In this document: in pieces, positions 4,805-28,306 of the stretch
Position numbering within the stretch: position 1 is the first letter of the stretch
Layout: each line of letters starts with the position of its first letter
Origin: an uncultured Acidimicrobiaceae bacterium
Lineage (GTDB): Bacteria > Actinomycetota > Acidimicrobiia > Acidimicrobiales > RAAP-2
DNA: 64,000 bases
Assembly (NCBI GenBank): GCA_963839925.1
Contig: CAWIWV010000001.1
Location: forward strand, 630,094-694,093
Reading direction: 5' to 3'
Made by a program: the position numbers and the translations under genes
The notes under the pieces: generated by a model
Database searches by the model: none
The model's input: only the letters and a program-made list of their open reading frames with translations
What the model was told of the DNA's origin: nothing

Positions 4805-4921
4805 CCCGATGTTGTCGCCTCTCTTCTTGCGTCTCGATCCGGCAGTTTCTAAAGGAGAAATAAGGGAAAGACCAGGCAATCCCGCTAGAAGAACGCGACG
4901 GCGCCATGCAATACTTTCTCT

Positions 4922-11759: not shown

Positions 11760-11769
11760 GTCGGCGCGG

Positions 11770-14227: not shown

Positions 14228-15640
14228 TCAGGAGCGGCCCGACACCCTCACCCGTGGACACACGGGACCGAACGAACGCGACCTGAAGCACCCGGTCCAT
14301 ACGCCCGCCCCGTAGCAGAGGTCGTCCACGACCGAGGCCAGCGTCCAGCGGACCGGGTCGAGACCCGGACGGTGCTTCCACCAGTCGACCAGGGGCGGAG
14401 CGAGGAGCAGGACTGCCGCTGCCCTCCGTGCACGTCCACCCCGGAGCAGCGCCATCACGAGGACGGGTCCGGCAAGCATGGTCGAAGCCCGGCCCATGCC
14501 GACGATCGCCCAGCAAGGGCTCGCCACGTTCCAACGAACGATCGCGCCCAGAGTGATGCCGCGACCGCGGATCCGCACACCGGTCGATGCCGTCGAAGCA
14601 GCGACCAAACCCATCGCGGTGCGGTACCGGCCGCTCAGCGCGGCGAGGGCGGCGGCTGCAGGCAACAGGCGGACGTCAACCGGTGCAAGACGGCCGGCGT
14701 GGCGCTTCGAGAGCGGAGCCGCTGAGGTGCCATACCGGAAACGACGGGCGAGGGTGCCCGGCCAGGTTCGGGGCTCCTCGTGAAACACGATGCTCGACGG
14801 TTCGTAGCGGACTCGCCATCCTGCGCCCGCCAGCCGCCAGACGAGGTCCACGTCCTCGCCGACCCGCAGTCGGGAATCGAATCCGCCCGCCGAATCAAAC
14901 GCTTCCCTCCGAATCACCAATGCTGCGGACGGAACGTAGCGAACACTCCTGATCGGATCCACCTCACTCGGTTCGGGTCCCATGTCGAGTGCCGAGTGCG
15001 CGTCGGCGAACCGGGTGAGGGCCCCCGGGTCCGCATCCGGGGTGGCCCGATCCGGCCGAACCCGCGGTGCCACAGCGCCCATGTCAGGGTCTTCGAACAT
15101 CCACACCAGCTGCTCGAGCCATCCGTCGGTCACCCGGCAGTCGGCGTCGACGAAGGCGACCAGATCGGTGGTGACGACGTCGACCGCCTGGTTCCGAGCC
15201 GCAGCCGGTCCACCGTTGATCGGTCGACGAATCAGCTGCGCCCGATGTCGATCGCAGACCGCCGCGACCGCGTCCGGGTCGTCGGAGGCGTCGTCGACCA
15301 CCACCACCGGCGTCGTCGTCCCCAGCGACGCAAGGCAACGGTCGAGTGCCTCGGCATGGTTGTGGACCGGCACGACGACCGTGAGGTCGGTGATTTCCGT
15401 GTTGCCGTTCACCACCTCGGGACGACGGGGGTGTGCCATGCCGGCATCGACCAGGCGCTGCGCGAGCTGACGTGATCCGTCGTTCGCCTCTTCACCGGCG
15501 AGCAGCGCGTCGAGCGTCGCCACACCTTGCGGTGTCAAGGTGATGAGCCGCCCGGGGGACCCGCCCACCAGCACGGTTCCGTTGCGGAAGGTGCGCGCCG
15601 ACCGGTCGAGCACCAACCCGAACCGCTCAGGAAGGGTCAC
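14228..15640 (-). CDS. mftF: Mycofactocin system glycosyltransferase
   Basis: 470 aa. The N-terminus LPERFGLVLDRSARTFRNGTVLVGGSPGRLITLTPQG is followed by a GT2 core (VVVPVHNH..., VVVVDDASDD, FVDADC). It is the last gene of the mft operon; its GTG start overlaps the upstream stop (GTGA at 15637-15640). Confidence 0.85.
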   Translation of the reverse strand: MTLPERFGLVLDRSARTFRNGTVLVGGSPGRLITLTPQGVATLDALLAGEEANDGSRQLAQRLVDAGMAHPRRPEVVNGNTEITDLTVVVPVHNHAEALDRCLASLGTTTPVVVVDDASDDPDAVAAVCDRHRAQLIRRPINGGPAAARNQAVDVVTTDLVAFVDADCRVTDGWLEQLVWMFEDPDMGAVAPRVRPDRATPDADPGALTRFADAHSALDMGPEPSEVDPIRSVRYVPSAALVIRREAFDSAGGFDSRLRVGEDVDLVWRLAGAGWRVRYEPSSIVFHEEPRTWPGTLARRFRYGTSAAPLSKRHAGRLAPVDVRLLPAAAALAALSGRYRTAMGLVAASTASTGVRIRGRGITLGAIVRWNVASPCWAIVGMGRASTMLAGPVLVMALLRGGRARRAAAVLLLAPPLVDWWKHRPGLDPVRWTLASVVDDLCYGAGVWTGCFRSRSFGPVCPRVRVSGRS

Positions 15641-16458
15641 AGAGACAGTCCGCCGTCCACCGGGATCACCGCCCCGGTGAGGGCTGCCGCATCCGGACCT
15701 GCCAGCCAGACCAGTGCGGCCGCGACCTCCTCGGGCCGGAGGAGCCGCCCGACCGGCTGCTGCTCACCGAACGGTCGGGTGTCCTCGAGGCCGTAGAGCC
15801 GGGCGCTCTCTGCAAGCGTCGCGGTGTCCGTCGACCCGGGGCTGACCGCGTTCGCGGTGATCCCGGTGCCGGCCAGCTCCACCGCGAGTCCGCGGATCAG
15901 TCCGCCCACACCTGCCTTGGCCGCGCCGTAGGCGGCCAGCTTCGGCAGTCCCTTGGTTGCTGCCGCCGAGGCCACCGCGAGGAACCGGCCGTGGCGGGGC
16001 GCGGGGCGCCGGAGCAGTGCCGGGACGGCAGCTCGGGCTGCGGTGATCGGGCCCAGGAGATTGACATGGATGACCGCTTCGAGCTGGTCGTCGGGCATCT
16101 CCCAGAGGTGGGTTCCACCGGCGATCACCCCCGCTGCGGCCACCATCGCGTCGAGACCACCGAAACGTTCCTCCGCGACTGCCACTGCCGCGCTGAGTGC
16201 CACCGGGTCGGTTGTGTCGGCGACGTATCCCACGACCCGGTCCGCGCCGGTCTCCTCTGCTGTGGGCGGCGGGCAGACCGCCAGCGCGTCTGCGACCGTG
16301 CGATCCAATTCCGCCTGCGTCCCCATCGGATAGGGGATCCGGGGGTCGTCCGCTGCCCGATCGACCGCGACGACCGACCAGCCCTGTGCGGCAAGGCCGA
16401 TCACCGTCGCCGCACCGATCCCACGCGCCGCCCCGGTCACGATTGCCACTCGGGTCAT
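15637..16458 (-). CDS. Mycofactocin-coupled SDR family oxidoreductase
   Basis: 273 aa starting at ATG 16458 (MTRVAIVTGAARGIG). The insert DPRIPYPMGTQAELDRT is typical of the mft-associated SDR clade; YGAAKAG active site. The 519-aa track ORF is an upstream out-of-gene extension. Confidence 0.85.
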   Translation of the reverse strand: MTRVAIVTGAARGIGAATVIGLAAQGWSVVAVDRAADDPRIPYPMGTQAELDRTVADALAVCPPPTAEETGADRVVGYVADTTDPVALSAAVAVAEERFGGLDAMVAAAGVIAGGTHLWEMPDDQLEAVIHVNLLGPITAARAAVPALLRRPAPRHGRFLAVASAAATKGLPKLAAYGAAKAGVGGLIRGLAVELAGTGITANAVSPGSTDTATLAESARLYGLEDTRPFGEQQPVGRLLRPEEVAAALVWLAGPDAAALTGAVIPVDGGLSL

Positions 16459-17189
16459 CCGCTCGCCTCCATCATCGATTGGTCGCGGGAGGTCTCGGCA
16501 CGCACCGCCAACGTGTGCGCCGCCGCGACCAGCCGGTCGGCAGCCGCCGACAACAACCGCTGACCCTCCTCGGCCGAAGCACCGGTCGGATCCCCGAGCA
16601 CTCCGTTCCGACTGACCGCTCGGATGCCATGTTCGCGAAGGATCGGCAACAGCAGTTCGATCGGACGTTCGTCGCCGGGCGTTGCGTGATCGAGATGCAC
16701 CCGGTCGGGCGCGATGGCCAGCATCAGTGACGTCTCGGTCCGACCTGCGTGCAGATCGCCACCCCACTGCGATGACCACGCCGCAACCGAGCGCCCTTCC
16801 GCGTTGAGCCGGGCCACCGCCCGGGCAACCGGTTCCGCGTTCCCGCCATGGGCGGTGACCAACATGATCGAATCGAACCCGACCGTCGCCGAGCGACCCA
16901 GCTCCAACAGGACGAGCTCGGTCGCCTCCGAGCCGATGGAGAGCGTTCCGGGGAAGGCCTGGTGCTCGCCGCTCGACCCGTAGGGGAGTGCGGGGGCGAC
17001 CAACAGCCGCGGGTCGCGCCTCGCGGCCGCCAGGGATACTGCGACCGCGATGTCGGTGTCGGTGGTGAGCGGAAGGTGAGGGCCGTGCTGCTCGGTCGAG
17101 CCCAGCGGGACGAGGAGGGTCGCGCGTCTGCCCGCATTTGCACCGAGTGAGTCCACGTCCGGCCAGGTCAGGCACTCCAATCGACTCAT
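16455..17189 (-). CDS. mftE: Mycofactocin precursor peptide peptidase (creatininase fold)
   Basis: 244 aa. LVPLGSTEQHGPHLPLTTD and VTAHGGN motifs of the creatinine amidohydrolase family. ATGA overlaps at both ends (17186-17189 and 16455-16458). Confidence 0.85.
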   Translation of the reverse strand: MSRLECLTWPDVDSLGANAGRRATLLVPLGSTEQHGPHLPLTTDTDIAVAVSLAAARRDPRLLVAPALPYGSSGEHQAFPGTLSIGSEATELVLLELGRSATVGFDSIMLVTAHGGNAEPVARAVARLNAEGRSVAAWSSQWGGDLHAGRTETSLMLAIAPDRVHLDHATPGDERPIELLLPILREHGIRAVSRNGVLGDPTGASAEEGQRLLSAAADRLVAAAHTLAVRAETSRDQSMMEASG

Positions 17190-18190
17190 CGTTCACCTCC
17201 TTCGTCGCCGGCCTCGGGATCCGGAAGGTGCTCGAGATAGCCGTTGCGCACCAGGTATCCGAGCAGCTCGTCCGCAGCCTCGCGGCTGTCGATCGGCCCG
17301 ACGACGGTCGGCGGGTCGTTGGTTGCGAGCGCCCCGGTCAGCGCGAGGAGGCGAATCCGAGGACCGCCTGCAGGTGCCGGGCGTACGTGAGTTCGGACGA
17401 CGAACGGCTGGGTCGGACCGACCCGGGTATGGTCGCTCTGACCCGGCCCTGCTCCCGTGCCGCCTCGCTCCGAGGGGCGGGGATGGCTGAGCGGCACCGT
17501 CAGCTTCTGGGCCTCGAGCGCCCCGGCCAGAGAAGCCCGACGGACTCGGGTACCCGCACCCTCGACCGAGCACACGGCAGGTGTCGGAACCCGGAGCCGC
17601 TCACGCCAGCCGCCATCGAGTCGGCGTTCCGCGAGCAGCGCTCTGTCGGCGACGCCGGCGGCTCCGCGGGGGGCGGCCTCGAGCTTCACCAATCCGAGGG
17701 CCTGGGAGGCACCGAGCTCGTGCGCGAGAAAGGCCGGCACCGCTCCGGTGCCGCGGTCGACCGAGCGATCGCCACACAACACCAGCTGCGGAGGTCCGAA
17801 CGGTTCGATCGCCGCGAGCAACACCCTGGCCAACTCGCGCTCGTCGCCCGCGAGCTCTCGCGCGTACCCGTGTTCGACTCGCTGATCGGCCATCGGCACT
17901 CGCAGCACCGACGCGCCGAGTGCCGCGACCTGTCGGAGCACGGGCTCGACGTTCGCCGGTCCGGCAGTGACCGCCACCAGGCGTCCCGACCACGCATCGC
18001 AGACACGGAGCGCGTGTTCGAGTGCGGCTTCGTCGGCCGGGGAGAGGCCGATCCCCCAGGGGTCCTGGCGCACCGAGCCGGTGAGCGGGTCGACCTCGGG
18101 CCGGAGGTCGGTGATCCTCAGGAACACCACCACCAGCGGGCGCTCCATGTCGGTCGTGTCACTGGCCATGGACTGGCTCGGCGGGTTCAT
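17186..18190 (-). CDS. Electron transfer flavoprotein beta subunit (FixA/EtfB-like) with C-terminal extension
   Basis: ATG 18190 overlaps the fixX stop (ATGA). ETF-beta blocks: VVVFLRITDLRPEVDPLTG and LVLCGDRSVDRGTGAVPAFLAHELG. The first 124 codons of the 458-aa track ORF are out-of-frame read-through of fixX. Confidence 0.8.
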   Translation of the reverse strand: MNPPSQSMASDTTDMERPLVVVFLRITDLRPEVDPLTGSVRQDPWGIGLSPADEAALEHALRVCDAWSGRLVAVTAGPANVEPVLRQVAALGASVLRVPMADQRVEHGYARELAGDERELARVLLAAIEPFGPPQLVLCGDRSVDRGTGAVPAFLAHELGASQALGLVKLEAAPRGAAGVADRALLAERRLDGGWRERLRVPTPAVCSVEGAGTRVRRASLAGALEAQKLTVPLSHPRPSERGGTGAGPGQSDHTRVGPTQPFVVRTHVRPAPAGGPRIRLLALTGALATNDPPTVVGPIDSREAADELLGYLVRNGYLEHLPDPEAGDEGGER

Positions 18191-18444
18191 CCGTGGTGGA
18201 AGACGACACCGAAGCCGCCGTCGGGATAGGTCCAGGTGATCGCGCCCTCCGAGTTGCAGACCATGTAGCAGGTCCCACATTCGAAGCACTCTTCGTAGTT
18301 GAAGAGGATGCCCCCGTCCGAGGTTGGAACGAACAGGTTGGCCGGGCACGCGGTCACGCACGCTCGGGTGGTGCACGAACGGCAGACGTCCGAGTCGACC
18401 GTGATATGGGCCCGATCGCCGACCCGGAAGTCCACGGTGGCCAT
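18187..18444 (-). CDS. fixX: FixX-type ferredoxin-like protein (minimal ORF; possibly extends to ATG 18562, see findings)
   Basis: 85 aa with Cys clusters CRSCTTRACVTACP and CFECGTC, and the C-terminus WTYPDGGFGVVFHHG as in FixX proteins. Confidence 0.85.
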   Translation of the reverse strand: MATVDFRVGDRAHITVDSDVCRSCTTRACVTACPANLFVPTSDGGILFNYEECFECGTCYMVCNSEGAITWTYPDGGFGVVFHHG

Positions 18445-18464
18445 GCGCTCCTCGAAGGAGATGC

Positions 18465-18549
18465 CGCGCCACTGGTCGCCTCCGGCTCCGCGCCACTGGT
18501 CGCCTCCGGCTCCGCGCCACTCGGTCGCCTCCGGCTCCGCTCCACTGGT
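18465..18549 (-). repeat. 24-bp tandem repeat, 3.5 copies (third copy is 25 bp)
   Basis: cgcgccactggtcgcctccggctc at 18465-18488 and 18489-18512; cgcgccactCggtcgcctccggctc at 18513-18537, with an extra C at 18522; partial copy at 18538-18549. Confidence 0.9.
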
Positions 18550-18558
18550 TGTGCTCGC

Positions 18559-19884
18559 TCATCCGAAGATCCTCATCCCCCGCAGGGTGTCGACCGCGAG
18601 CTCGCGGAGTTTCACCCCGTGCTTGGCGGCGGCTGCCCGGGTCAGCCGCAGGCCGCCGGCTTTCGGCGTCGGGTTGGTCACCGTGAACATCCCTTCCGCC
18701 AGGTCGCAGATGAGGCCCGGGTAACGACGTTGCACCCGCTCGGAGAGGACCAGCGCGGGGGCCTTGCGCAACCGTTTGTGATCTGCGAGTACGAACTGCT
18801 GCTCGAGGTCGGTGCGGTAGGAGGCGAGTCCACCTGCCGAGCAGTCACCCGAGGCGATGGCACGGTCCACCGCCCGGCCGGCGGCGAAGCCCGACCCGAT
18901 GGCGAAGTTGACCCCTTCGAGCCAGATCCCTGCGGCCAGGGTCATGGCTGCCGCGTCTCCGGCGATGAGCATCCCGTCCATGGCGAGTGGCGGCATGGTG
19001 TCGTAGCCGCCTTCGGGGATCAGATGGGCCGCGTACTCTCGCAGTGTCGCGCCGCGCAGGTACGGTGCGATCGATGGATGGGCCTTCAGGTCGGCGATCA
19101 GCTCCTCGGGGCGGATTCCCGAGGCGGCGAGGTGGGGGAGCGAGAGCACCAGACCGACGCTGACGGTCGCGGCATTCGTGTAGAGGAACCCGCCGCCCGG
19201 GATGTCACGGGTGCAGCCGAGCATCTCGAAGTCCACCCCTTGGTGGTCACGGACCCCGAAGCGCTCGTTGATCGTCTCCGCGGGGAGTTCGAGGACCTCT
19301 TTCACCCCAAGGGTGTGGTGGGCGGCCTCGGCGCGAGCGACCAGCCCGGCTTCCTTGGCGAGCAGCGAGTTCACGCCGTCACATGCGATGACCACCTCGG
19401 ACCGCAGCTCGGCGCCGGCTCGATCGGTGCGCACCCCGACCACCCGGCCTCGGTCGTCCCGCAACAACCCGGTCGCCACGGTCGAGGTGAGGAGCTCGGC
19501 GCCGGCTTCGCGCGCCTTGGACGCGAGCCAGTTGTCGAAGTGGGACCGCACGGTGGTCATCCCGTTGAAGGGTGCCGACCCCCACGCCTCGGACCGGTAG
19601 TCGATCGACATCGACTGGGTCTCGGTCATCATGACCGTCGACCGGCGGACCACCCACCGCTCGGCGGGTGTCTCTTCCCACCAGCGCGGGATGATGTCGT
19701 CGAGCACTCTGCCGTAGACGACGCCCCCATAGACGTTCTTCGATCCGGGGAAGGGGCCTCGCTCCACCATCACCACCGAACGACCGGCCCGTGCGAGCGC
19801 GATCGCCGCAGCTGCTCCCGCCGGACCGGCGCCCACCACCACCGCGTCGAAGTTGGCCACGTCTGTCGATGCCATCCCGGTCAT
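18559..19884 (-). CDS. fixC: FixC / ETF-quinone-oxidoreductase-like FAD-dependent oxidoreductase
   Basis: 441 aa from ATG 19884 (MTGMASTDVANFDAVVVGAGPAGAAAAIALARAG). The ATGA overlaps the fixB stop. The 820-aa track ORF joins it to the out-of-frame N-terminal half of fixB. Confidence 0.85.
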   Translation of the reverse strand: MTGMASTDVANFDAVVVGAGPAGAAAAIALARAGRSVVMVERGPFPGSKNVYGGVVYGRVLDDIIPRWWEETPAERWVVRRSTVMMTETQSMSIDYRSEAWGSAPFNGMTTVRSHFDNWLASKAREAGAELLTSTVATGLLRDDRGRVVGVRTDRAGAELRSEVVIACDGVNSLLAKEAGLVARAEAAHHTLGVKEVLELPAETINERFGVRDHQGVDFEMLGCTRDIPGGGFLYTNAATVSVGLVLSLPHLAASGIRPEELIADLKAHPSIAPYLRGATLREYAAHLIPEGGYDTMPPLAMDGMLIAGDAAAMTLAAGIWLEGVNFAIGSGFAAGRAVDRAIASGDCSAGGLASYRTDLEQQFVLADHKRLRKAPALVLSERVQRRYPGLICDLAEGMFTVTNPTPKAGGLRLTRAAAAKHGVKLRELAVDTLRGMRIFG

Positions 19885-20958
19885 GAGCGGTCCCCATTCT
19901 CCTCGGGCAGCCTGATCCCGAATCGTCGGCCGAGCTCGACGAGGAGGCCTCCGGCGTCGGTGACCAGGCCGAGATCGGCCATGGCGGTCATCGGCGACGA
20001 CGGATCGGTGTTGACGCTCACCAGGTGGCGGGGGGTCCCGAGGCCACCGATGTGCTGCGCCGCCCCGGACACGCCGAACGCAACGTAGAGGTCCGGGTCG
20101 ATGGCGACCCCGGTGGTACCGATCTGCCGTTCGTAACCGGTCCAGCCGGCATCGGTTGCCACCCGGGTCGCACCAGCGGAGCCACCGACCGCTTCGGCTA
20201 CTCGGGACAGCAGATCGAACAGCGCCTTCGCCCCGGGTTCGTCGGAACCTGCCGCCAGCCCAGCGCCACCGGCCAGCACTCTGGTTGCGTCCGCCAGGTC
20301 CATCGTGCGGAGATCGGGCTCGAGCACGTCGAGAACCTCTGGATCGGCTGGACCGGCGCCGGATCTCCCTGAACTCCTCACGAATTCCGGGGAGCGGATC
20401 CACCGCACATCCCTGCCGTTGCGAGTCGACCGAGCGAACCCCCGGCGTCAGCGTTGCGACTGCGGGACCGTCCACGACGACGGGCACCAGGACCCGGTCG
20501 TCGAGCCGGGACACCACGGCGCGCACCTGACAGGACGGCTGCTCGGTCTCCGCAGCTGGAAGTGGACCGCATTCGACCCGGATCGTCTGAGCGATCAAAT
20601 CGCGGTCCATCGCAGCGGCAAGGCGCGGGGCGAGATCGCGACCGTCAGGGGATGCCGGCAGGACCACCAGCGGCACCCGCTCGAGCAGGGGAGCCAGCGC
20701 CGCCGCAAGGGAAGCCGGTCGGAGTCCCGCGCCGGTCTCGCCCCAGAAGGCCTGGTGTGCGCTGGTCAGCGCTCGGGCGCCCTGCTCGGCTCCCGAGCCG
20801 ACCACGACGGCAACCCCACCCGCTTCGGCCACGGTCTCGTCTGCACCGGTGGGAAGCCTCCCGTCCCGCGCCACGATCACCGCGAGCGCAGACGTCCGCG
20901 TGTCGCCGGTTTCGAAGAACGGGGTGCGAGGACCGCTCGCCTGTTCGACCCGGCTCAC
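19881..20958 (-). pseudogene. Electron transfer flavoprotein alpha subunit (FixB/EtfA-like) with a frameshift at about 20340-20410
   Basis: GTG 20958 overlaps the upstream stop (GTGA). The N-domain (ALAVIVARDGRLP...VPLVVLPASPDGRDLAPRLAA) is in one frame. The FAD domain (VLAGGAGL...ATRVATDAGW...YVAFGVSGAAQH) is in the frame of ORF 19881-20408. The span is 1078 nt (3n+1). Confidence 0.75.
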
Positions 20959-22925
20959 AGGGCCACCGCCACCTGGTGACCCTCCACGACCGCTGCGTGC
21001 GCTCGCCGGGGGGCAACGCAATCACCGACCCGGTGCACGGGAAAGGAGCACTGGGCAAGCTCCCGCCACAGGTCGTTCTCGGGTTGCTGATGGACCGAGC
21101 AGACCACCCAGTCGCACGACCGTTCGACCGTGGTGCCTGTGGGGTGGTGCTGCAGCTCGAGCATGACCCCACCACTTGCTCCGTCCGCCTCGCGCACTCC
21201 CATCGGCACCAGGTCGACGCTCTGGCCGATCTCTTTCGCGTGCGCTTTCACGTTCCAGATCTCCATGTCGAGGGTCACCCCGAGGTCCTGTGCCACCACC
21301 ATCCCGTTGGTCACGATCTCGACGCGGCACCCGCGGTCGGCCAGCAGTTCGGCGGTGGAGGTGGCCTGGTGGAACCCGAGCTCGTCGACGACGACCACCG
21401 ATCCCTGGGGGTGGGACCGCCCCTCGAGGACGTCGCGTACGTCGACCACCCTCGGGTGATCGCCGGCCCACCACGGCCGGGCCGGTCTGGCTCCGGTCGC
21501 GAGGATCACCGCATCGGGCCGCTGCGCCTGGATCGCCGCCCGAGTTGCCTCGGTTCCGGTCAGGAGTTCGACACCGAGCCGGTGTGCGGCCACGACCAGG
21601 TTTCGGGTGATGTCGAGGAACTCGGCGCGGCTGGGCACCGAGGCGGCGACCTGCACCTGGCCTCCGAGCCGTGCGGCCCGTTCGAACAAGGTCACCCGGT
21701 GTCCCCGTTCCGCCGCGCTGACCGCGGCCTGCAACCCTCCCGGCCCACCTCCGACGACGACCACCTTGTGGCGTCGACGAGGCGGTGGGACGAAGGCCGT
21801 GGCTTCTTTGCCGGTCAGCGGGTTCTCGATGCAGCCGAGCCATCGGTTGAGTCCCATGCGCCCCACACACTCCTGGTTGCAGGAGAGGCAGGTGCGGATG
21901 TCGACGGCGTGCCCCGAGCGGGCCTTGGCGCCGAAGTCCGCGTCGGCGATCTGACCGCGGACGATGCCGACCAGATCGCAGAGCCCCTCGTCGAGAGCGC
22001 GGTCCGCCTGTCGCGGGTCCTTGAACCGCCCGACGCCGACGACCGGAATGTCGACGGCTTCCCTGATCGCGCTCGGGATGAACATGGCGTAGCCGGGGGG
22101 CACCTGCATGCTCGCCTCGATCATGTACAACGTGGCGGTGGCCACGCCGATCGAGGTGTTGATGTAGTCGACCTGACCGGAGGCGTCCACCATGCGGGCA
22201 ACCGCGACCGCATCCTCGATGGTGGTGCCGCCCTCGATCAGCTCGTCCCCGCACAGGCGTACGCCGAGCACCCGATCGCGACCGATCACCGACCGGACCG
22301 CGTCGACGATCTCGAGCAACAGCCGCGCCCGGTTGGGCAGCGCGCCGCCGTAGTCGTCCTCTCGGTGGTTGGTCGCCGGGGACAGGAACCCGCGCACAAT
22401 CGACGAGTGGGAGCACTGGAGCTCGATGCCGTCGAAGCCGCCCTCCATGCAGTGGCCGGCCACCGTCGCATAGCCGGCGACCAGCTCCGTGATCTCATGG
22501 ATCTCGACTGCCTTGGGCACCTCCCGGAAGAGGGGATCGGGCACCGGACTGGGTGCCCACACCGGCAGGCGCGAGTACATGCTCGAGGCCTGGCCCCCGT
22601 TGTGGTTGATCTGGGCGAGGATGGGCACGTCGTACGCGTGGACGGCCTCGGTGATCCGACGGTATCCCTCGACCACCTCCGGATTGAAGCCGTGGATGAG
22701 CTTCTCGTAGGGCCAGTCGGTGGGATGGGTGGAGTGTTCCTCCGTGATGATCAGCCCGGCACCCCCCGCAGCCCGCGCCCGGTAGTAGGCCGCATGCTGC
22801 TCGGTCGGCAGCCCGGTGCGCGCGTAGTTGGTGAGGTGGGCCGAGAACACGATCCTGTTCGCGAGGGTCAGCGGGCCGATCCGAAGCGGGCTGAAGAGAT
22901 GGCGGTACTGACCTCCCGCGCTCAT
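20955..22925 (-). CDS. FadH/OYE-family flavoprotein oxidoreductase (2,4-dienoyl-CoA-reductase-like; mycofactocin-system type)
   Basis: 656 aa. OYE barrel (LANRIVFSAHLTN, INHNGGQ), Cys-rich linker CLSCNQECVGR, then a GGGPGG Rossmann domain. Confidence 0.85.
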   Translation of the reverse strand: MSAGGQYRHLFSPLRIGPLTLANRIVFSAHLTNYARTGLPTEQHAAYYRARAAGGAGLIITEEHSTHPTDWPYEKLIHGFNPEVVEGYRRITEAVHAYDVPILAQINHNGGQASSMYSRLPVWAPSPVPDPLFREVPKAVEIHEITELVAGYATVAGHCMEGGFDGIELQCSHSSIVRGFLSPATNHREDDYGGALPNRARLLLEIVDAVRSVIGRDRVLGVRLCGDELIEGGTTIEDAVAVARMVDASGQVDYINTSIGVATATLYMIEASMQVPPGYAMFIPSAIREAVDIPVVGVGRFKDPRQADRALDEGLCDLVGIVRGQIADADFGAKARSGHAVDIRTCLSCNQECVGRMGLNRWLGCIENPLTGKEATAFVPPPRRRHKVVVVGGGPGGLQAAVSAAERGHRVTLFERAARLGGQVQVAASVPSRAEFLDITRNLVVAAHRLGVELLTGTEATRAAIQAQRPDAVILATGARPARPWWAGDHPRVVDVRDVLEGRSHPQGSVVVVDELGFHQATSTAELLADRGCRVEIVTNGMVVAQDLGVTLDMEIWNVKAHAKEIGQSVDLVPMGVREADGASGGVMLELQHHPTGTTVERSCDWVVCSVHQQPENDLWRELAQCSFPVHRVGDCVAPRRAHAAVVEGHQVAVAL

Positions 22926-22964
22926 CGGGTCAACCCACCCTCACCGAACTGCTTCGGACATGGT

Positions 22965-23810
22965 TCACCGTGTCGCCGATCCGGCGTCGACGGTGAGGGT
23001 GAGCCCGGTGACCATGCGGGACTCGTCCGAGGAGAGGAACACCAACGCTTCGCTCACGTCAGCGGGCGTGACCAGATCCACGGGCAGCGAGTTGAGGAAG
23101 ACCGAACCGGTCCGCGGGTTCGAGTCGATGCACTCGCCCAGTCCGGAGAGGCCGGCGAGCATCGGCGTGTCCACACCGGTCGGGTGGATCGAGTTGACCC
23201 GGATGTCGTACATGGCGAGCTCGACCGCCAGCGACCGCATCACGCCGACCAGTGCGTGTTTCGACGCCGTGTAGGGATGGAAGAACGGTTGCCCCTTGAG
23301 GCCGGCGACCGAGCTGATCAGCACCATCGAGCCACCGCCCGCGGCGATGAGGTGAGGGGTGGCCGCGACGCAGGTGTTCCAGACCCCGGTCAGGTTGACG
23401 CCGACCACCGTGTCCCACACCGAGGGGGTGACCTCGTCCCACCGTTGCACGGTGCACACCCCGGCGTTGGCGACGGCCACGTCCAGCCGCCCGAGATGGC
23501 CGACACCGTCGTCGACGGCGGCCGACAGCGCGCCGGAGTCGCGCACGTCGACTCGATGACTGACCATCGTTCGCCCGGTCTCTGCGACCAACCGAGCCGT
23601 CTCTTCGAGGTCCGCGGGTGTCGCGAGCGGGTAGGGGATCCCCGGCAGGTCGTCGCAGATGTCGATGCCGATGATGTCTGCGCCCTCACGCGCGAGTCGC
23701 ACCGCATGGGACCGGCCTTGTCCACGTGCGGCTCCGGTGATCAGGGCCACCTTGCCCCTGACCCGGCCGCTGCTCTCCGCCGGCTCCGCGGGCGCGCCTG
23801 CGGTGGTCAC
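22965..23810 (-). CDS. Mycofactocin-coupled SDR family oxidoreductase (second copy)
   Basis: 281 aa. GKVALITGAARGQGRS, the clade insert DLPGIPYPLATPADLEET, and YTASKHA. The GTG start overlaps the upstream stop (GTGA at 23807-23810). Confidence 0.85.
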   Translation of the reverse strand: MTTAGAPAEPAESSGRVRGKVALITGAARGQGRSHAVRLAREGADIIGIDICDDLPGIPYPLATPADLEETARLVAETGRTMVSHRVDVRDSGALSAAVDDGVGHLGRLDVAVANAGVCTVQRWDEVTPSVWDTVVGVNLTGVWNTCVAATPHLIAAGGGSMVLISSVAGLKGQPFFHPYTASKHALVGVMRSLAVELAMYDIRVNSIHPTGVDTPMLAGLSGLGECIDSNPRTGSVFLNSLPVDLVTPADVSEALVFLSSDESRMVTGLTLTVDAGSATR

Positions 23811-25781
23811 TGGTTCGCCCCCACCAACATCGGGATCCCCGGCGCGCCGTCACCGCCCGCAATCGCCAGGGCCGCACGCCGTCCCTCGAGCACCGCGTCG
23901 AGCACCCCTCTCGGCGCCACGCAGTCGCCCACCCGCCACGCGCCCGGCCGCAGGAGCGAGAGCGAATCGTCAGGGAGGCGATGGCCGCAGTCGATGATCG
24001 CCGCGCAGCCGATCGCTCGTTGCTCGCCGGTCCAGCGGTCTTCGAGGAGCGCCTCCCCGCCACCGGCGCTGCGCAAGAGCGCTCGCAGTTCGCGACGGAC
24101 GCCCGCCCGTTGGAGTCGGGTGTTGGCGTCGGCCAGATCCCCGGTCAACGACAGCAGGGTTCCCGCCACCTGGTCTTGGGTGACGAGGGCAACCTCGCGC
24201 TCGAGACCGGCCAGCCATTCCGCGACCCCCACCCCGACCGGACCGCCCACCGGATCGAGCACGACCACCGGGCCATCCGGTAGGAGCTCGGGCCCGCCGT
24301 CGAGCACCTCCAACGGATCGAACACCGGGCAACCTTCGACCGGGACGGCGATCGGAGCCCTCCGCGAGCCGGTGGCGAGCACCACCTCGGTGCCCTCCGA
24401 ATGTGCCACGTCGAGATCGGCCGCAGACGCCTCCACCCCGGTCTCGATCGCCACACCTCGTGCCCCGCACTCGTCGACCAGCCACGAGACGAGACGCGCG
24501 ATCCGGTCGCGGCCCGGACCGACCGCACAGGTGCGGGCCGTCCCCCCGGCACGCTCCGTTCGCTCCACGATCCGGACCCGGTGCCCTCGGGCACTCAGCA
24601 CCCTCGCGCATTCGAGGCCTGCGACCCCTGCGCCGACGATGAGCACCTGCCGGGTGACCGGATCACTGCCGGCAACCGATGGCTCGATGGTCTCGTAGCC
24701 ACTGCGCGGCTCACCGATGCAGCTCACGATCGGGTTGCGGTTGTCGCGAACCCGACAGGCTTGGTTGCAGAGCACGCACGGGCGAATCCGGGAGGTCTGC
24801 CCACTTCGGATGAGCTGGACCAGTCGCGGCTCGGCGATCTGGGCGCGGGTCATCTCCACCAGGTCGGACGTCCCGTCGTCGAGGGCCGACTGAGCCGCAT
24901 CGGGATCGACGACGCTCCCTTGGAGGACGACAGCGGCCCGACCGTCGGCGGCCTCGCGGATCTGGCGGCAGAGCGCGAGGTTGAAAGAGGGTTCGGCGTG
25001 GCCGTCCGGGCGGTAGGCCGACGTCGAGAAGGGACCGCCGCGCACCACGACCAGCAGGTCCACCAGCTCTGCGAGTTCGGCGACGTGCTGCACCGCCTGT
25101 TCGGGGGTGACTCCCGCCCATGGGGCGAGCTCGTCGCAGCTGAGACGCAAGGAGAGCACCCGGTCGGTGCCGATTGCCGCTCGCACCGTGCGGAGCACGT
25201 CACGGGTGACACGGAGCCGATCCGTTCCGTACGAGTCGCTCCGCAGGTTGGTCAGCCCCGAATGGAACTGGCGCAGCAGCGAAAAGGCTCCGGCATCGAT
25301 CTCCACCCCGTCGAGATCCGACCGGACGGCGTTCCCCGCCGCCGCGGTGAACGCGTCGACCAACTGCTCGATCTCGCGGGCCTCCATCTCCATGGGCATC
25401 TCGCGGGTCGCGACGTCGGCCACCGGGGAGGGCGCCCAAAGGACCGACTGGGAGTAGGCGCTCGATCCTTGCCCGCCGGCGTGGCCGAGGCCCGCCAGCA
25501 CCAGCGCTCCGTGCCGGTGGCACGCGGCGGCGATGGCAGACCAGCCCGGGCCGCAGTCGTCGGCGAGCGGCGCCCGCTCGTAGGGCCAATCCGACGGATG
25601 GACCGACGCCGTCTCGGTGACCACGATCCCCGCGCCGCCGGCCGCGCGCTCCTCGTAGTAGGCGAGATGGCGCGCTCGAGAACGCGCGTTCCTCGCCGAG
25701 GTTGGTCTCGTGGGGGCCGAAGACCACCCGTGCGGGTGCGCGGCGCCCGGCCAGGACGACCGGGTCCTCCAGACGTGTCAT
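23807..25781 (-). pseudogene. FadH/OYE-family flavoprotein oxidoreductase (second paralog) with a frame break at 25667-25682
   Basis: ATG 25781 gives MTRLEDPVVLAGRRAPARVVFGPHETNLGEERAFS in one frame. The protein continues RARHLAYYEERAAGGAGIVVTETASVHPSDWPYE... in the frame of the 605-aa ORF. CVLCNQACRVR linker and IVGAGVAGLECA Rossmann motif. The span is 1975 nt (3n+1). Confidence 0.75.
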
Positions 25782-25784
25782 CGA

Positions 25785-27011
25785 TCAGCGCCGGTGGGTG
25801 CCTTGTGCCGCACCAGCGAGCGGGCTCTCGTCGCACGGTCGGGTCGGAGGTCGTGCGAGGAGGGCGACCGGTGCACCCCTCCTCCGGCGGGAGTGGTCAA
25901 CCGTTGGGGCAGGAGGAGCACTGCTGCGCGCCTCGAGTGCGCTCTCTCCGTGGCCGAGCACGCATTCGGGATCGGGACCGTCGAGTGGGAGACCGGTGAA
26001 GAACTTCGCAGCCATGCACCCACCCCGACACCCGTCGTAGTGGCCGCACGATGCGCACGCCCCGGCACTCTGTGGGCGACGGAGTTCTTCGAAGAGATCG
26101 GAGTGACGCCAAACCTCCGCGAACCCGCCACGGGAGCGGACGTTTCCGGCAAGGAACTCGTCGTGGATCGCGAACGGGCACGCGTAGACGTCGCCGACCG
26201 GGTCGATCAGGCACACCACCCTTCCCGCACCGCACAGGTTCAATCCGGGCAGCGCGTCGCCGTAGCCCGCAAGATGGAAGAACGAATCACCGGTGAGGAC
26301 CGCTTCGCCCTTTCGCAACAGCCAGTCGTAGAGGATCCGTTGCTGGTCGGAGGTCGGGTGCAGTTCGTCCCAGACCGTGGCGCCCCGCCCCGAGGGTCTC
26401 AGCCGGGTGAGGCGGAGCTGTGCGCGGTAGCGCTGGGCGAGCTCCTCAAAGGCATCGAGCTGGGGGATGTTGTGCCGGGTGGCGACAACCGACAGCTTGA
26501 ACCCGGCGAACCCGGCATTGGCCAGGTGGTCCATCGCTGTGATCGCGGTGTCGAAGGAACCCTCCCCGCGGATGGCGTCGTTCACCGCCGCATCGGCGCC
26601 ATCCAGGGAGATCTGGACGTCGACGTAGTCGCTTGCCGCCAACCGCTCGGCCACAACGGGTGTGATTCGAGAACCGTTCGTGGAGAATTTGATGCCCACT
26701 CGGTGGGACGTGGCGTACTCCACCAGCTCCCAGAAGTCGGCCCGCACCGTCGGTTCGCCGCCTCCGATGTTGACGTAGAAGATCTGCATGCGCTCGAACT
26801 CGTCGATGAGCGCCTTGCATTCGTCGGTGGAGAGCTCGCGTGGATCCCGTCGACCGGAGCTCGAGAGGCAGTGGGTGCAGGCAAGGTTGCACGCGTAGGT
26901 GAGTTCCCAGGTGAGACAGATCGGCGCGTCCAGGCCGCGTTCGAACCGGTCGACCAGTCGGAAGGTTGCAGGAACTCGCGTGGAGGACTCCTGCACGCCG
27001 ACCACGGTCAC
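25785..27011 (-). CDS. mftC: Mycofactocin radical SAM maturase
   Basis: GTG 27011 overlaps the mftB stop (GTGA). CNLACTHC radical-SAM cluster motif, then a Cys-rich SPASM-like C-terminal region (CGAGRVVC...CPF...CASCGHYDGCRGGC). Confidence 0.9.
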   Translation of the reverse strand: MTVVGVQESSTRVPATFRLVDRFERGLDAPICLTWELTYACNLACTHCLSSSGRRDPRELSTDECKALIDEFERMQIFYVNIGGGEPTVRADFWELVEYATSHRVGIKFSTNGSRITPVVAERLAASDYVDVQISLDGADAAVNDAIRGEGSFDTAITAMDHLANAGFAGFKLSVVATRHNIPQLDAFEELAQRYRAQLRLTRLRPSGRGATVWDELHPTSDQQRILYDWLLRKGEAVLTGDSFFHLAGYGDALPGLNLCGAGRVVCLIDPVGDVYACPFAIHDEFLAGNVRSRGGFAEVWRHSDLFEELRRPQSAGACASCGHYDGCRGGCMAAKFFTGLPLDGPDPECVLGHGESALEARSSAPPAPTVDHSRRRRGAPVALLARPPTRPCDESPLAGAAQGTHRR

Positions 27012-27331
27012 GGCTCGTCCCGTCTGCAGATCATGTCGGTGCGGGCGAGCGTTTCGAGGGCCCGGTCGTAGGTGTCGAGCTCGGAGATCGCCACCCCGGC
27101 CGCGAGGCACGCGTCACGGGCGGACGACTGCTCGTCCAGCGATTGAAGGATGGCCAAGAGGGTCCGGCTCTTCACGAAGGAGAGCCGCCGGGTGCCGAAG
27201 TGGTAGGCGAGCGCGCCGAACTCCTCGGGTCGCAAGGAGACCTGTGGATGGAGTCTCCAGGGGAACGACGGGTCGTAGGGGGACGAACGGTCGTGCTTCA
27301 AGGAGACGGCGTCAGGTGTGGCAGGCGACAT
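27008..27331 (-). CDS. mftB: Mycofactocin biosynthesis chaperone (RiPP recognition protein)
   Basis: 107 aa from ATG 27331 (MSPATPDAV...). The block PWRLHPQVSLRPEEFGALAYHFGTRRLSFVKS is typical of MftB. The longer track ORF start at 27394 would overlap mftA. Confidence 0.85.
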   Translation of the reverse strand: MSPATPDAVSLKHDRSSPYDPSFPWRLHPQVSLRPEEFGALAYHFGTRRLSFVKSRTLLAILQSLDEQSSARDACLAAGVAISELDTYDRALETLARTDMICRRDEP

Positions 27332-27378
27332 CAGCGCGCGTTGGGGGTCGATCGCCGGAGCGGGCAGGGCGGATGGCG

Positions 27379-27537
27379 TCAGTAGACGCCGCACATCCCG
27401 TCGATGGAGACGTCCTCGACCAACAGATCGGACTCGACCAGCACGACCTCCTCCGGCGATTCGGTTCGGATCTGATCGGCCGGTTTCGCCTGCGACTCGG
27501 TGGTGACGGTCGGTTGGTCGGATGCGGCGATGCTCAT
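27379..27537 (-). CDS. mftA: Mycofactocin precursor peptide
   Basis: 52-aa ORF, below the length cutoff of the supplied track: MSIAASDQPTVTTESQAKPADQIRTESPEEVVLVESDLLVEDVSIDGMCGVY. GGAGGA SD 5 nt upstream of the ATG. The C-terminal IDGMCGVY is the MftA hallmark. Confidence 0.9.
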   Translation of the reverse strand: MSIAASDQPTVTTESQAKPADQIRTESPEEVVLVESDLLVEDVSIDGMCGVY

Positions 27538-27629
27538 GGATCCTCCGATGTTCGGCCGGCCTCAGCCGGAGTTGCAGGCGGAAAAGTCGTGGTCGACCCC
27601 GGCTTCCCGGAAGCCGTCGGGGTCATCGG

Positions 27630-27662
27630 TTCCAATTTATAGCACTCGATGTCAAAATGGAA
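27630..27662. promoter_or_regulatory. Imperfect inverted repeat in an AT-rich island between mftA and mftR; candidate MftR operator and promoter region
   Basis: TTCCAATTT (27630-27638), N15, AAAATGGAA (27654-27662): 8 of 9 positions are complementary. Extended -10-like TGcTATAAA on the minus strand (TATAAA at 27641-27636). CAAAAT on the plus strand ends 9 nt before the mftR ATG. Confidence 0.4.
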
Positions 27663-27667
27663 GTCTC

Positions 27668-28306
27668 ATGACTCCCGGCGAGGCAACGACAGGAGGGGAT
27701 GGCGTGCAGGACCAGGCGGCAAGGGGACGCCGTCCGAGCACCACCCGGCGAGAGGTCGCCCGCGCCGCGCTCGAGCTGTTCGCCAGCCAGGGGTACGAAG
27801 AGACCAGCATCGACGAGATCGCCGCCGCGGTGGGCATCAGCCGTCGGACCTTCTTCCGGTACTACGAATCCAAGCGCGAAGTGGTCTGGGGCGAGTTCGA
27901 CGCCGAGCTGGTTCGGCTGCGCGACCGGCTCGATGCGTCCGGCGACGACGAACCGATGATGGAGGTGCTCCGCAGCGCAGTCATCGACATCAACCAATTC
28001 GGAGCCGGCGAGCTCGACGAACTACGCATCCGGATCGGTCTGACCAGCACGGTTCCCACGCTGATTGCCCACTCGGCAGTCAGGTATGCGGAGTGGTGCG
28101 AGGTGGTTGCGAGGTTCGCGGCGCGACGCCTCGGTACCTCGCCCGAGGATCTCGCGCCCCAAACCGTTGCGCGCGCCGCGCTCGGGGCGGCGATGTCTGC
28201 TTTCGTCTACTGGGCCAACCGTGGTGGTGACGATCTCGCGACAGAGGTGGACCGCGCGTTCAGGATGCTCGCCGCCGGATTCGACCCGAGTCGGATGCCC
28301 GGCTGA
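27668..28306 (+). CDS. mftR: TetR-family transcriptional regulator of the mycofactocin system
   Basis: ATG 27668. TetR HTH block REVARAALELFASQGYEETSIDEIAAAVGISRRTFFRYYESK. Divergent from mftA. Confidence 0.8.
   Translation: MTPGEATTGGDGVQDQAARGRRPSTTRREVARAALELFASQGYEETSIDEIAAAVGISRRTFFRYYESKREVVWGEFDAELVRLRDRLDASGDDEPMMEVLRSAVIDINQFGAGELDELRIRIGLTSTVPTLIAHSAVRYAEWCEVVARFAARRLGTSPEDLAPQTVARAALGAAMSAFVYWANRGGDDLATEVDRAFRMLAAGFDPSRMPG

Follow-up and report, generated by a model that had tools for sequence, protein, structure and literature searches.

The 64-kb stretch of Acidimicrobiaceae DNA analyzed here (the window) carries a mycofactocin operon in which the mftC-mftE interval, the site of mftD in related operons, holds the series OYE1-SDR-OYE2-EtfA-FixC-FixX-EtfB. 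MftD is the FMN-dependent AHDP deaminase of the canonical pathway, and MftG its GMC mycofactocin dehydrogenase. The cassette is a variant of the known mycofactocin system that is already named in annotation models. We tentatively regard the locus as a 'type II' mycofactocin operon, a reading we hold at a little under even confidence, in which an ETF-to-FixCX-to-quinone chain fed by the OYE enzymes would replace MftG and probably MftD. Such a conserved alternative form of the mft cluster offers a testable answer to how the cofactor may be made and recycled without these two proteins.

Gene identities were assigned against the curated NCBIfam cut-offs, using mycofactocin-specific models. The canonical part of the operon comprises mftA, mftB, mftC, mftE, mftF, two mycofactocin-coupled SDR nicotinoproteins and mftR. 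The TetR-family regulator mftR (27668..28306, plus strand; TIGR03968, 235 bits vs cut-off 225) is divergent from the operon, as in 57/59 full related loci; its longest ORF begins at 27500, and the likely start gives 212 aa. All other genes lie on the minus strand. The 52-aa precursor peptide MftA (27379..27537; TIGR03969, 43 bits vs 25) ends in translation with VSIDGMCGVY. Read from its second ATG, the chaperone gene mftB (27008..27331; TIGR03967, 104.5 bits vs 33) encodes 107 aa, the length of MftB in the related locus L002; its longest ORF extends to 27394. The radical SAM/SPASM maturase gene mftC (25785..27011, 408 aa; TIGR03962, 640 bits vs 265) precedes the cassette, and the creatininase-family peptidase gene mftE (16455..17189, 244 aa; TIGR03964, 280 bits vs 172) follows it, succeeded by SDR2 of subfamily 2/4 (15637..16458, 273 aa; TIGR04504, 335 bits vs 250; NF040491, 308 bits vs 265) and the glycosyltransferase gene mftF (14228..15640, 470 aa; TIGR03965, 394 bits vs 280).

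Within the cassette, the mycofactocin-system FadH/OYE oxidoreductase 1 (OYE_1, 23807..25781; TIGR03996, in two frames) is frameshifted, whereas oxidoreductase 2 (OYE_2, 20955..22925, 656 aa; TIGR03997, 995 bits vs 793) is intact. Between them lies SDR1, a nicotinoprotein-type member of mycofactocin-coupled SDR subfamily 1 (22965..23810, 281 aa; TIGR03971, 359 bits vs 300). The ETF is encoded by etfA/fixB (19881..20958, mycofactocin-associated alpha, FixB-like large subunit, frameshifted; NF038209, in two pieces) and etfB/fixA (17186..18190, mycofactocin-associated beta, FixA-like small subunit, 334 aa; TIGR04503, 333 bits vs 200). The two ETF genes flank fixC (18559..19884, 441 aa), a FixC-like FAD oxidoreductase resembling an ETF-quinone-oxidoreductase subunit (NF007542, E = 1.4e-96, 324 bits, below the cut-off of 610), and fixX (18187..18562), a frameshifted ferredoxin-like gene with eight cysteines in two [4Fe-4S] motifs (NF011993, E = 7.6e-15 for the 85-aa part from ATG 18444). 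FixC and FixX match generic FixC/FixX models only, below their cut-offs. EtfB has more than 1000 homologues, several of them labeled mycofactocin-associated ETF beta by NCBI. The models TIGR04503/NF038209 and TIGR03996/TIGR03997 name mycofactocin ETF beta/alpha and FadH/OYE 1/2, so the association with mycofactocin is already present in annotation models, as the preliminary description had stated; no paper describing the cassette, its function or its exclusivity with mftD was found.

The order from mftA to mftF with a divergent mftR, as first described, was borne out by the ORFs and NCBIfam matches. The nine 4-nt ATGA/GTGA overlaps reported then are also present (27008, where the mftB stop and mftC start share GTGA, 23807, 20955, 19881, 18559, 18187, 17186, 16455 and 15637), and the same nine occur in the intact relative L002. 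Four-base overlaps are frequent in high-GC operons, and these reflect operon organization and nothing more unusual. No promoter-like or terminator-like sites were found within the operon on the coding strand.

The arrangement is strongly conserved. A genome scan identified mft-type etfB in at least 156 species-level genomes, and the loci examined were the best-scoring 80 of these 156 matches, nearly all from one order (mostly Acidimicrobiales). EtfB lies inside the mft operon in 78 of these 80 species loci, and the survey of mft neighborhoods called for in the preliminary description gave an identical core order in all 59 loci that span mftC to mftF, with an internal gap above 500 bp in one locus only. 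SDR2 was found in 59/59 and SDR1 in 49/59 full related loci, and fixC always sits between etfA and fixX. OYE1-OYE2-EtfA-FixC-FixX-EtfB stay joined even when separated from the mft genes (L079, L081). The linkage of the ETF/FixCX genes to mft loci is thus specific and not generic, given the EtfB model match and its operon placement. On plasmids carrying mftC (n = 12), six from Streptomyces encode mft-EtfB without MftD, four encode MftD without mft-EtfB and two encode neither; mft-EtfB was not found on plasmids lacking mftC, and the next-best plasmid matches were rhizobial FixA proteins (29% identity). The Streptomyces yangpuensis CM253 plasmid NZ_CP102515.1 (PGAP annotation) carries the same cassette (mftABC, OYE1, OYE2, EtfA, FixC, FixX, EtfB), although its last genes are ordered mftF-mftE, its SDRs differ or are missing, and EtfB identity is 43-48% in this Streptomyces version. 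Both forms exist within the genus, strain NBC_00080 having mftG with mftA-F and S. yangpuensis the cassette.

Compared with the canonical mftR/mftABCDEF(+mftG) system of Mycobacteriales (Tsukamurella L085, M. smegmatis), the locus shares mftR, mftA, mftB, mftC, mftE, mftF and the SDRs, all at or above equivalog or subfamily cut-offs, as well as the divergent regulator, the single operon and the IDGMCGVY tail of MftA. Unlike that system, it has neither mftD nor mftG and inserts seven other genes between mftC and mftE. The absence of both genes from the window, noted earlier, held in tblastn searches with five MftD/MftG reference proteins (best E-value 2.5). Neither was found in 82 related loci (~1.5 Mb; best E-value 0.03) or on the six cassette-bearing Streptomyces plasmids. 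Conversely, EtfA, EtfB, FixC and FixX were not found in 80 MftD-anchored metagenome loci (674 kb), most of them short: 36 include mftC, and nine extend 8 kb or more downstream of mftC. ETF/FixCX and MftD therefore occur together in 0/82 related loci, 0/80 MftD-anchored loci and 0/10 plasmids carrying either gene. In three otherwise syntenic operons (L147, L127, L131), the order is mftR< B C D E SDR2 F, with mftD in the slot of the cassette.

The exchange is narrower than the preliminary description implied when it set the whole FixBCXA/OYE/SDR module in the place of MftD and MftG. OYE1, SDR1 and OYE2 stand alongside MftD and MftG, without the ETF, in L098, L099 and L128. Since the two OYE genes co-occur with mftD and mftG, the exchanged genes are etfA-fixC-fixX-etfB, set against MftD(+MftG), and the OYE enzymes alone are not the substitute. 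To our knowledge, no ETF, FixC or FixX is an amine- or alcohol-oxidizing enzyme. On some long contigs MftD is far from the other mft genes (21 kb in L129; also L117), so an mftD-free window is no proof of an mftD-free genome and the exclusivity applies at the level of the locus. Many MftG-less genomes encode MftD and no ETF (e.g., Thermomicrobium, Amycolatopsis), and the ETF is consequently not the sole solution. The paper on MftG reports that 25% of mftC genomes lack mftG and leaves the substitute open, and a published whole-genome survey lists S. yangpuensis (MftC WP_257858222) without mftG genome-wide.

The cofactor motifs suggest how the cassette may operate. OYE_1 combines an FMN barrel with a CxxCxxxCx11C motif and one GxGxxG, and both motifs are kept in 57 OYE1 and 61 OYE2 orthologues. 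The third domain, like that of histamine dehydrogenase and 6L6J, has D(P/E)xG instead of a further GxGxxG. By these sequence features, OYE1 and OYE2 are predicted to be three-domain FMN/[4Fe-4S] flavoenzymes that lack an NAD(P)H site. The same type of enzyme, with FMN, [4Fe-4S] and ADP-type domains and no NAD(P)H site, is found in the trimethylamine dehydrogenase-ETF (1O94) and Pno-EtfAB-Euo (nicotine degradation) chains, in which the enzyme gene likewise adjoins etfAB and a gene for ETF-quinone oxidoreductase; like Pno, the cassette OYE has no Cys for covalent FMN. Sequence resemblance to these amine dehydrogenases is moderate (E = 1e-24 to 1e-54), and OYE2 is nearer FadH/NCR. The cassette also differs from them in the Fe-S spacing of the OYE enzymes, which is of FadH type, and in its quinone module, which is FixCX and not a single-chain ETF-QO. 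The physiological acceptor of Pno, which has FMN, [4Fe-4S] and ADP with FMN bound non-covalently, is EtfAB, as for trimethylamine and dimethylamine dehydrogenases, and this EtfAB is reoxidized by an ETF:quinone oxidoreductase from the same cluster (PMC7688666). In Thermotoga maritima EtfABCX, electrons leaving the ETF cross two [4Fe-4S] clusters of EtfX and then the FAD of EtfC on their way to menaquinone (PMC10734219).

By analogy with trimethylamine dehydrogenase and 6-hydroxypseudooxynicotine dehydrogenase, electrons would be exchanged between the two OYE enzymes and their dedicated EtfAB, which could then pass them to the two [4Fe-4S] clusters of FixX, the FAD of a membrane-associated FixC and finally menaquinone. 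In this way the chain would do the work of MftG, draining the mycofactocin pool into respiration, and it would probably also provide an O2-independent oxidation at pyrrolidinone C3, converting AHDP to premycofactocin in place of MftD. The direction of electron flow, the pairing of the ETF with the OYE enzymes, quinone as the sink and the subunit acting on AHDP or mycofactocinol are inferred; the gene identities, the operon structure, its conservation, the locus-level exclusivity with mftD and mftG and the cofactor motifs are observed. The ETF route to the quinone pool suggested in the preliminary description is plausible by analogy, and the mft linkage of its ETF/FixCX genes is supported by the survey.

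Two other functions deserve consideration. The direction of electron flow might be reversed: the nearest solved structures to OYE_2 are FadH (1PS9), NCR (6QKG, 2-naphthoyl-CoA reductase), 6L6J, histamine dehydrogenase and TMADH, with E = 1e-77 for FadH and 1e-75 for NCR against 1e-54 to 1e-47 for the amine dehydrogenases, and because OYE2 is nearer to the reductases, electrons might flow into the OYE enzymes and not out. EtfAB would then feed OYE1/OYE2 as FadH/NCR-like ene- or aryl-reductases or in cofactor tailoring, within a mycofactocin-linked catabolic or reductive unit, and mftD would lie elsewhere in the genome. The OYE pair in canonical clusters with MftD and MftG, and the contigs on which MftD is unlinked, fit this view. 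It nevertheless appears unlikely, as it gives no account of the ETF/FixCX-MftD exclusivity, of the cassette's position in the slot of MftD or of six Streptomyces plasmids with a complete mft set and the cassette but no mftD, and the FixCX quinone module would be superfluous if the OYE enzymes were the sink. Alternatively, EtfAB-FixCX could be a flavin-based electron-bifurcating complex that oxidizes NADH or mycofactocinol and reduces both quinone and a ferredoxin or flavodoxin of low potential. Its role might be, for instance, to feed the radical SAM enzyme MftC or to shuttle electrons between the pools of mycofactocin and NAD. The cassette has the same four subunit types as FixABCX/EtfABCX (Azotobacter, Rhodospirillum; T. 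maritima structure 7KOE), down to the two [4Fe-4S] motifs of the FixX-like protein, and its nearest solved ETFs belong to the bifurcating group (EtfB to 4KPU_B and 7KOE_A; EtfA to 5OL2_A, 6FAH_A and 7KOE_B); the rhizobial FixA plasmid matches and the biochemistry on record for EtfABCX (PMC10734219) point the same way. However, the group-2 motif RPxFGG of the large subunit is replaced by R-A-V-V-S-R-L-D-D and RxGV of the small subunit by R(D/Q)xWG, and EtfB resembles its bifurcating counterparts only weakly (E = 1e-13). A C-terminal extension of ~70 aa in EtfB sets the module apart from FixABCX, as does its invariable association with two OYE-family enzymes. Bifurcation would leave these enzymes without a role and the MftD exclusivity without an explanation. 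We consider bifurcation quite improbable, and the proposed replacement of MftG and probably MftD remains our preferred reading.

The preliminary description treated the cassette genes as intact ORFs, which proved incorrect for OYE_1, etfA and fixX. Located against L002, OYE_1 has a +1 insertion at ~25676; residues 1-35 match profile positions 1-33 of TIGR03996, and the remainder matches 35-633 in another frame (862 bits). A net +1 shift at 20374-20387 splits etfA into an N-terminal piece (positions 2-144 of NF038209, 163 bits) and a C-terminal piece in a different frame (160-302, 238 bits), both below the cut-off of 240. The orthologues in L002 are intact (657 and 358 aa, respectively). In fixX, alignment with L001, L002 and L003 places a +1 insertion at 18522, within a tandem repeat at 18464-18549 (24 nt x 3.5). 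As a result, the ferredoxin-like part is read in a different frame from the ATG at 18562, the one that overlaps the stop of fixC. Decay of the cassette in the source genome, with OYE1, etfA and fixX as true pseudogenes, would agree with the absence of such frameshifts from mftA-C, mftE and mftF, yet it is highly improbable. Comparable single-base frameshifts appear in genes unrelated to the cassette, at 12103 and 10591 (in each case relative to L001 and L002) and at ~50440, and L001, ~98% identical, and L002 are intact at the shared and cassette sites, respectively; for these reasons the three shifts most probably arose in sequencing or assembly. Genes are likewise split in 24/59 related MAG loci, sequence outside the indels is well conserved (90-92% DNA identity to L002), and frameshift density is ~1 per 4 kb over the 21 kb compared.

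The operon consists of 13 tightly packed genes on the minus strand (14228 to 27537), with a TetR-family gene diverging from them. NCBIfam profile searches with curated cut-offs, from which the gene names are taken, bear out the gene order and identities given in the preliminary description. The core of a mycofactocin cluster (Haft 2011; TIGR models) is present: MftA (TIGR03969, 43 bits, cut-off 25), whose C-terminal end is the canonical IDGMCGVY, MftB (TIGR03967, 104.5 bits, cut-off 33) and the radical SAM/SPASM protein MftC (TIGR03962, 640 bits, cut-off 265), together with the peptidase MftE (TIGR03964, 280 bits, cut-off 172) and the glycosyltransferase MftF (TIGR03965, 394 bits, cut-off 280). 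The divergent plus-strand gene encodes MftR (TIGR03968). Between mftC and mftE lies a seven-gene cassette encoding, in order, OYE1 (TIGR03996, 'mycofactocin system FadH/OYE family oxidoreductase 1', 862 bits on the main piece, cut-off 628), the mycofactocin-coupled SDR1 (TIGR03971), OYE2 (TIGR03997, 'FadH/OYE oxidoreductase 2', 995 bits, cut-off 793), EtfA (NF038209, 'mycofactocin-associated ETF alpha'), a FAD protein, a ferredoxin with eight cysteines forming two cluster motifs, and EtfB (TIGR04503, 'mycofactocin-associated ETF beta', 333 bits, cut-off 200); a second mycofactocin-coupled SDR, SDR2 (TIGR04504/NF040491), stands between mftE and mftF. The only scores below a curated cut-off belong to the FAD protein (NF007542, 324 bits, cut-off 610) and the ferredoxin (NF011993, 55 bits, cut-off 166), both against generic models and hence named FixC-like and FixX-like here, and to each half of a split EtfA (163 and 238 bits, cut-off 240, covering profile positions 2–144 and 160–302). 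EtfB thus qualifies as mycofactocin-associated by both its TIGR04503 score and its mft neighborhood, while EtfA is cut by a frameshift. All nine ATGA/GTGA start-stop overlaps reported earlier are present, and a scan of the operon's coding strand returned no promoter-like or terminator-like sites.

Three genes of this set are not unbroken reading frames, a point missed in the preliminary description. OYE1 carries a +1 insertion near 25676 that switches the frame past residue 35, EtfA a net +1 shift at 20374 to 20387 that switches it between the two domains, and fixX a +1 insertion at 18522 that puts the ATG overlapping the fixC stop out of frame. The last falls inside a 24-nt tandem repeat of 3.5 copies in the 5' part of fixX (18464 to 18549), which encodes WRGAGGDQ. 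Two relatives identified via exact-protein look-up provide the comparison: an ENA scaffold (L001, ∼98% protein identity) that spans fixC onward downstream, and a 154-kb JGI contig (L002, ∼90% DNA and 87% protein identity) that holds the whole operon. The repeat is shared, in frame, by the window and L001 (FixX of 124 aa) and absent from L002 and a third relative, L003 (FixX of 100 aa). In L002 every gene is intact and in the same order (OYE1 657 aa, EtfA 358 aa, FixX 100 aa), and the nine overlaps are identical to those of the window. Its mftA-mftB gap is 10 nt, lacking ∼37 nt found at 27332 to 27370 in the window.

Relative to both L001 and L002, unbalanced single-base indels also occur at 12103, in a pentapeptide/GH113 gene, and at 10591, in a 781-aa membrane-type gene; near 50440, the frame of an acyl-CoA ligase gene changes so that its C-terminus runs on into an aldehyde dehydrogenase ORF. 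These sites point to indel noise across the window, at a frameshift density of ∼1 per 4 kb over the 21 kb compared. Because the indels extend to unrelated genes, and because genes are in pieces in 24 of 59 related MAG loci, the frameshifts are read as probable assembly noise and not as decay of the module. That the three lesions are real and the cassette is decaying in this genome is highly improbable, since similar indels hit genes unrelated to the operon; pseudogenization limited to the module is unlikely on the same ground.

The absence of mftD and mftG from the window, claimed from the sequence, was confirmed with tblastn, independently of the GC3-based gene call: four proteins of the MftD type (TIGR03966, the FMN-dependent pre-mycofactocin synthase) found no homologue in the 64 kb (best E = 2.5), nor did two MftG proteins of the GMC family (E ≥ 6.7). 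The reference proteins were taken from annotated plasmids of Tsukamurella, Mycolicibacterium chubuense, Thermomicrobium roseum and Streptomyces sp. NBC_00080. Across 82 related loci, totaling ∼1.5 Mb, tblastn likewise detected no MftD or MftG homologue. The MftD family has been described as 'not universal' (Haft 2011), and mftD lay outside the scope of the co-occurrence analysis in the MftM paper. In the table of the MftG paper, mftG is missing genome-wide from Streptomyces yangpuensis, whose MftC accession is the same as that of a cassette-bearing plasmid, and from the Acidimicrobiia included (two Aquihabitans, one Iamia and Ilumatobacter coccineus) (PMC11778925).

A co-occurrence survey of the kind proposed in the preliminary description shows that mft-type ETF and FixCX genes are, at nearly all loci examined, embedded in mft operons. 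An EtfB alignment, run against a single genome for each GTDB species, returned at least 156 genomes with a relative, and the best 80 of the 156 loci, a sample dominated by one order, were examined by tblastn with reference proteins. Nearly all are Acidimicrobiales MAGs, with two Dermatophilaceae and a few labeled only Actinomycetota or Actinomycetes. The core order mftC-OYE1-OYE2-EtfA-FixC-FixX-EtfB-mftE-mftF is kept in all 59 loci of this set that span mftC to mftF, with SDR1 in 49, SDR2 in every one and mftR divergent in 57, and an internal gap of more than 500 bp occurs in one locus only. OYE1-OYE2-EtfA-FixC-FixX-EtfB also stands alone in L079 (3156–10897) and L081 (3166–10984), with no mft gene within 10 kb and in a housekeeping setting (OpcA/6-phosphogluconolactonase/LOG-like genes on one side, glycolate-oxidase-like glcDEF genes on the other); because both loci carry these six genes away from mft genes, the six travel as a unit. 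As a separate observation, a conserved ORF of ∼520 aa with weak similarity to GH43 arabinanases directly follows mftF on the same strand in L056 (14230–15795) and 19 other loci with the ETF/FixCX cassette and no mftD or mftG (hereafter type II; type I is the canonical, mftD-bearing form), and is absent from the window.

The reverse comparison gives the same partition. No EtfA, EtfB, FixC or FixX was found in 80 MftD-anchored metagenome loci (674 kb), most of them short, with mftC in 36 and at least 8 kb downstream of mftC in nine. Twelve plasmids in the plasmid collection carry mftC: six, all from Streptomyces, encode an mft-type EtfB and no MftD, four (Tsukamurella, M. chubuense, Streptomyces NBC_00080 and Thermomicrobium) encode MftD but lack an mft-type EtfB, and two haloarchaeal plasmids encode neither. 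On plasmids without mftC, no mft-type EtfB was found, the next matches being rhizobial FixA at 29% identity. PGAP annotates on the S. yangpuensis CM253 plasmid mftA, mftB, mftC, OYE 1, OYE 2, mft-ETF alpha, a FAD oxidoreductase, a 4Fe-4S protein, mft-ETF beta, mftF and mftE. Three loci (L147, L127 and L131) read mftB-mftC-mftD-mftE-SDR2-mftF with divergent mftR, an arrangement whose surrounding genes match those of the window and which places mftD at the exact site of the window's seven-gene cassette.

What is exchanged at this site is smaller than the whole cassette. The canonical cluster of L098 (7606–20165) reads mftB-mftC-mftD-OYE1-SDR1-OYE2-mftE-mftF-mftG with divergent mftR and no ETF or FixCX gene, and L099 and L128 also combine OYE1-SDR1-OYE2 with mftD and no ETF. 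Because these three loci hold the OYE pair with mftD and without ETF, the pair is an accessory of both cluster types, and EtfA-FixC-FixX-EtfB is the part swapped for mftD(+mftG). The exchange thus concerns less than the redox module of the preliminary description, whose OYE pair is also found with mftD and mftG. The idea that OYE1 and OYE2 replace MftD and MftG one-to-one was dropped, as L098-type clusters hold all four. A rough neighbor-joining tree built from MftC, which has no support values, puts type II sequences of Streptomyces and Dermatophilaceae among type I; this is no more than suggestive, and would imply repeated swapping or horizontal transfer.

Both OYE enzymes have three domains and share the features of amine dehydrogenases of the TMADH/histamine dehydrogenase/Pno type: an FMN barrel, a four-cysteine [4Fe-4S] motif, an ADP-type GxGxxG but not the second, NAD(P)H-type copy, as seen in alignments to 6DE6 and 6L6J. 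The CxxCxxxCx11C motif and the single GxGxxG are kept in 57 OYE1 and 61 OYE2 orthologues, in which D(P/E)xG replaces the second glycine-rich loop of the third domain, a trait shared with histamine dehydrogenase and 6L6J but not with the NADPH domain found in FadH. In OYE2 the alignment to the 2,4-dienoyl-CoA reductase FadH (1PS9) ends at residue 513, and the stretch beyond it has DELGFHQ where a glycine-rich loop would be expected, so that the FadH-type NADPH-binding third domain is not found there. OYE2 retains one active-site histidine (CSHSS), which OYE1 does not, and both lack the cysteine for 6-S-cysteinyl-FMN present in TMADH and HADH, as does Pno. Among solved structures, FadH, 2-naphthoyl-CoA reductase, 6L6J, the histamine dehydrogenases and trimethylamine dehydrogenase come closest. 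Pno, an FMN/[4Fe-4S]/ADP enzyme of nicotine catabolism with non-covalent FMN, performs an oxidative deamination with EtfAB as physiological acceptor, as do trimethylamine and dimethylamine dehydrogenases, and its EtfAB is re-oxidized by an ETF:ubiquinone oxidoreductase from the same gene cluster (PMC7688666). For the mycofactocin OYE enzymes, a corresponding role of the ETF as acceptor in amine deamination is putative and is based on the constant adjacency of etfAB and fixCX.

We tentatively regard an electron-transfer chain from the OYE enzymes through EtfAB and FixCX to quinone, replacing MftG and probably also serving AHDP oxidation, as the most likely mechanism. The mycofactocin-coupled SDRs would reduce mycofactocin, as in other systems; OYE1 and OYE2, with no pyridine-nucleotide site, would trade electrons with the dedicated EtfAB, which would pass them through FixX and FixC to the quinone pool. 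Such a chain would act in place of MftG, and the same chain would probably support the conversion of AHDP to premycofactocin without O2, given that the cassette occupies the slot of MftD and excludes it. AHDP and mycofactocinol differ solely in carrying NH2 or OH at C3, so that one site could in principle serve both. A further reading, in which the last biosynthetic oxidation and mycofactocin recycling are both independent of O2, MftD and MftG, is possible yet somewhat doubtful. Oxidation of C3 of the pyrrolidinone (amine to ketone in AHDP, alcohol to ketone in mycofactocinol) would then fall to an FMN/[4Fe-4S] dehydrogenase of the OYE family or to FixC, with the electrons passing via the dedicated EtfAB and FixCX into menaquinone. 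If so, repeated swaps between mftD(+mftG) and the cassette across actinobacterial lineages would represent two interchangeable solutions.

Two other arrangements deserve consideration. The OYE enzymes could form a reductive unit fed by the ETF, with mftD encoded elsewhere in the genome. MftD is the sole mft gene on some long contigs (L129, 21 kb; L117, 15 kb), so an unlinked mftD may occur in type II genomes; the named matches to the L147 MftD, among the 120 nearest proteins listed, are Mycobacteriales, Jatrophihabitantaceae and Amycolatopsis, and, as a weak test, none of the contigs in that listing equals a type II contig in length. We consider a reductive OYE unit with a distant mftD unlikely. 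A bifurcating complex of the FixABCX type would be in keeping with the closest PDB relatives of the ETF subunits, the bifurcating ETFs 4KPU, 7KOE, 5OL2 and 6FAH, but the group 2 (bifurcating) motifs RPxFGG (large subunit) and RxGV (small subunit; PMC10734219) are not found: only the arginines align, the large subunit reading R-A-V-V-S-R-L-D-D and the small subunit R(D/Q)xWG at these sites. Bifurcation is accordingly quite unlikely. In the EtfABCX of T. maritima, electrons leave the ETF through the clusters of EtfX, reach the EtfC FAD and then pass to menaquinone (PMC10734219), a path resembling that of the preferred OYE-EtfAB-FixCX chain.

In the current pathway model, mycofactocin is not redox-active without MftD and, in mycobacteria, is not regenerated without MftG. 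About one quarter of the genomes with mftC have no mftG, and what takes its place was left as an open question in 2025 (PMC11778925). The type II operon, conserved across at least 156 species-level genomes and also carried by plasmids from culturable Streptomyces, offers a concrete candidate for this role in a compact set of genes. A further question, which we did not see raised in the literature, is how premycofactocin is synthesized when MftD is missing. Should the ETF route prove correct, the mycofactocin pool would be tied to the quinone pool through a different chemistry, and synthesis and use of the cofactor without oxygen may be possible. The protein families themselves are not new, as the link of the ETF and OYE families to mycofactocin loci is already contained in NCBIfam models and PGAP product names. 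Within the library searched in full text, no paper was found that names mycofactocin alongside ETF, describes a cluster of this type or reports its exclusivity with mftD; the papers matching mycofactocin and either old yellow enzyme or dienoyl-CoA reductase were all irrelevant.

Elsewhere in the window, four paralogous genes encode GH113-like domains (1–879; 3508–4662, minus strand; 4889–7834, plus strand; 11732–14161, minus strand), two of them also with long pentapeptide-repeat N-terminal regions, and the copy adjoining mftF keeps its place in L001 and L002. Three paralogous small Thr/Gly-rich ORFs on the plus strand (∼41354–41829, 42347–42741 and 56638–57269) possibly encode secreted proteins. 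The plus-strand gene at 59685 to 60818, for which no restriction partner was apparent, is, as we presume from a DPPY motif recognized by eye, a probable N6-adenine DNA methyltransferase.
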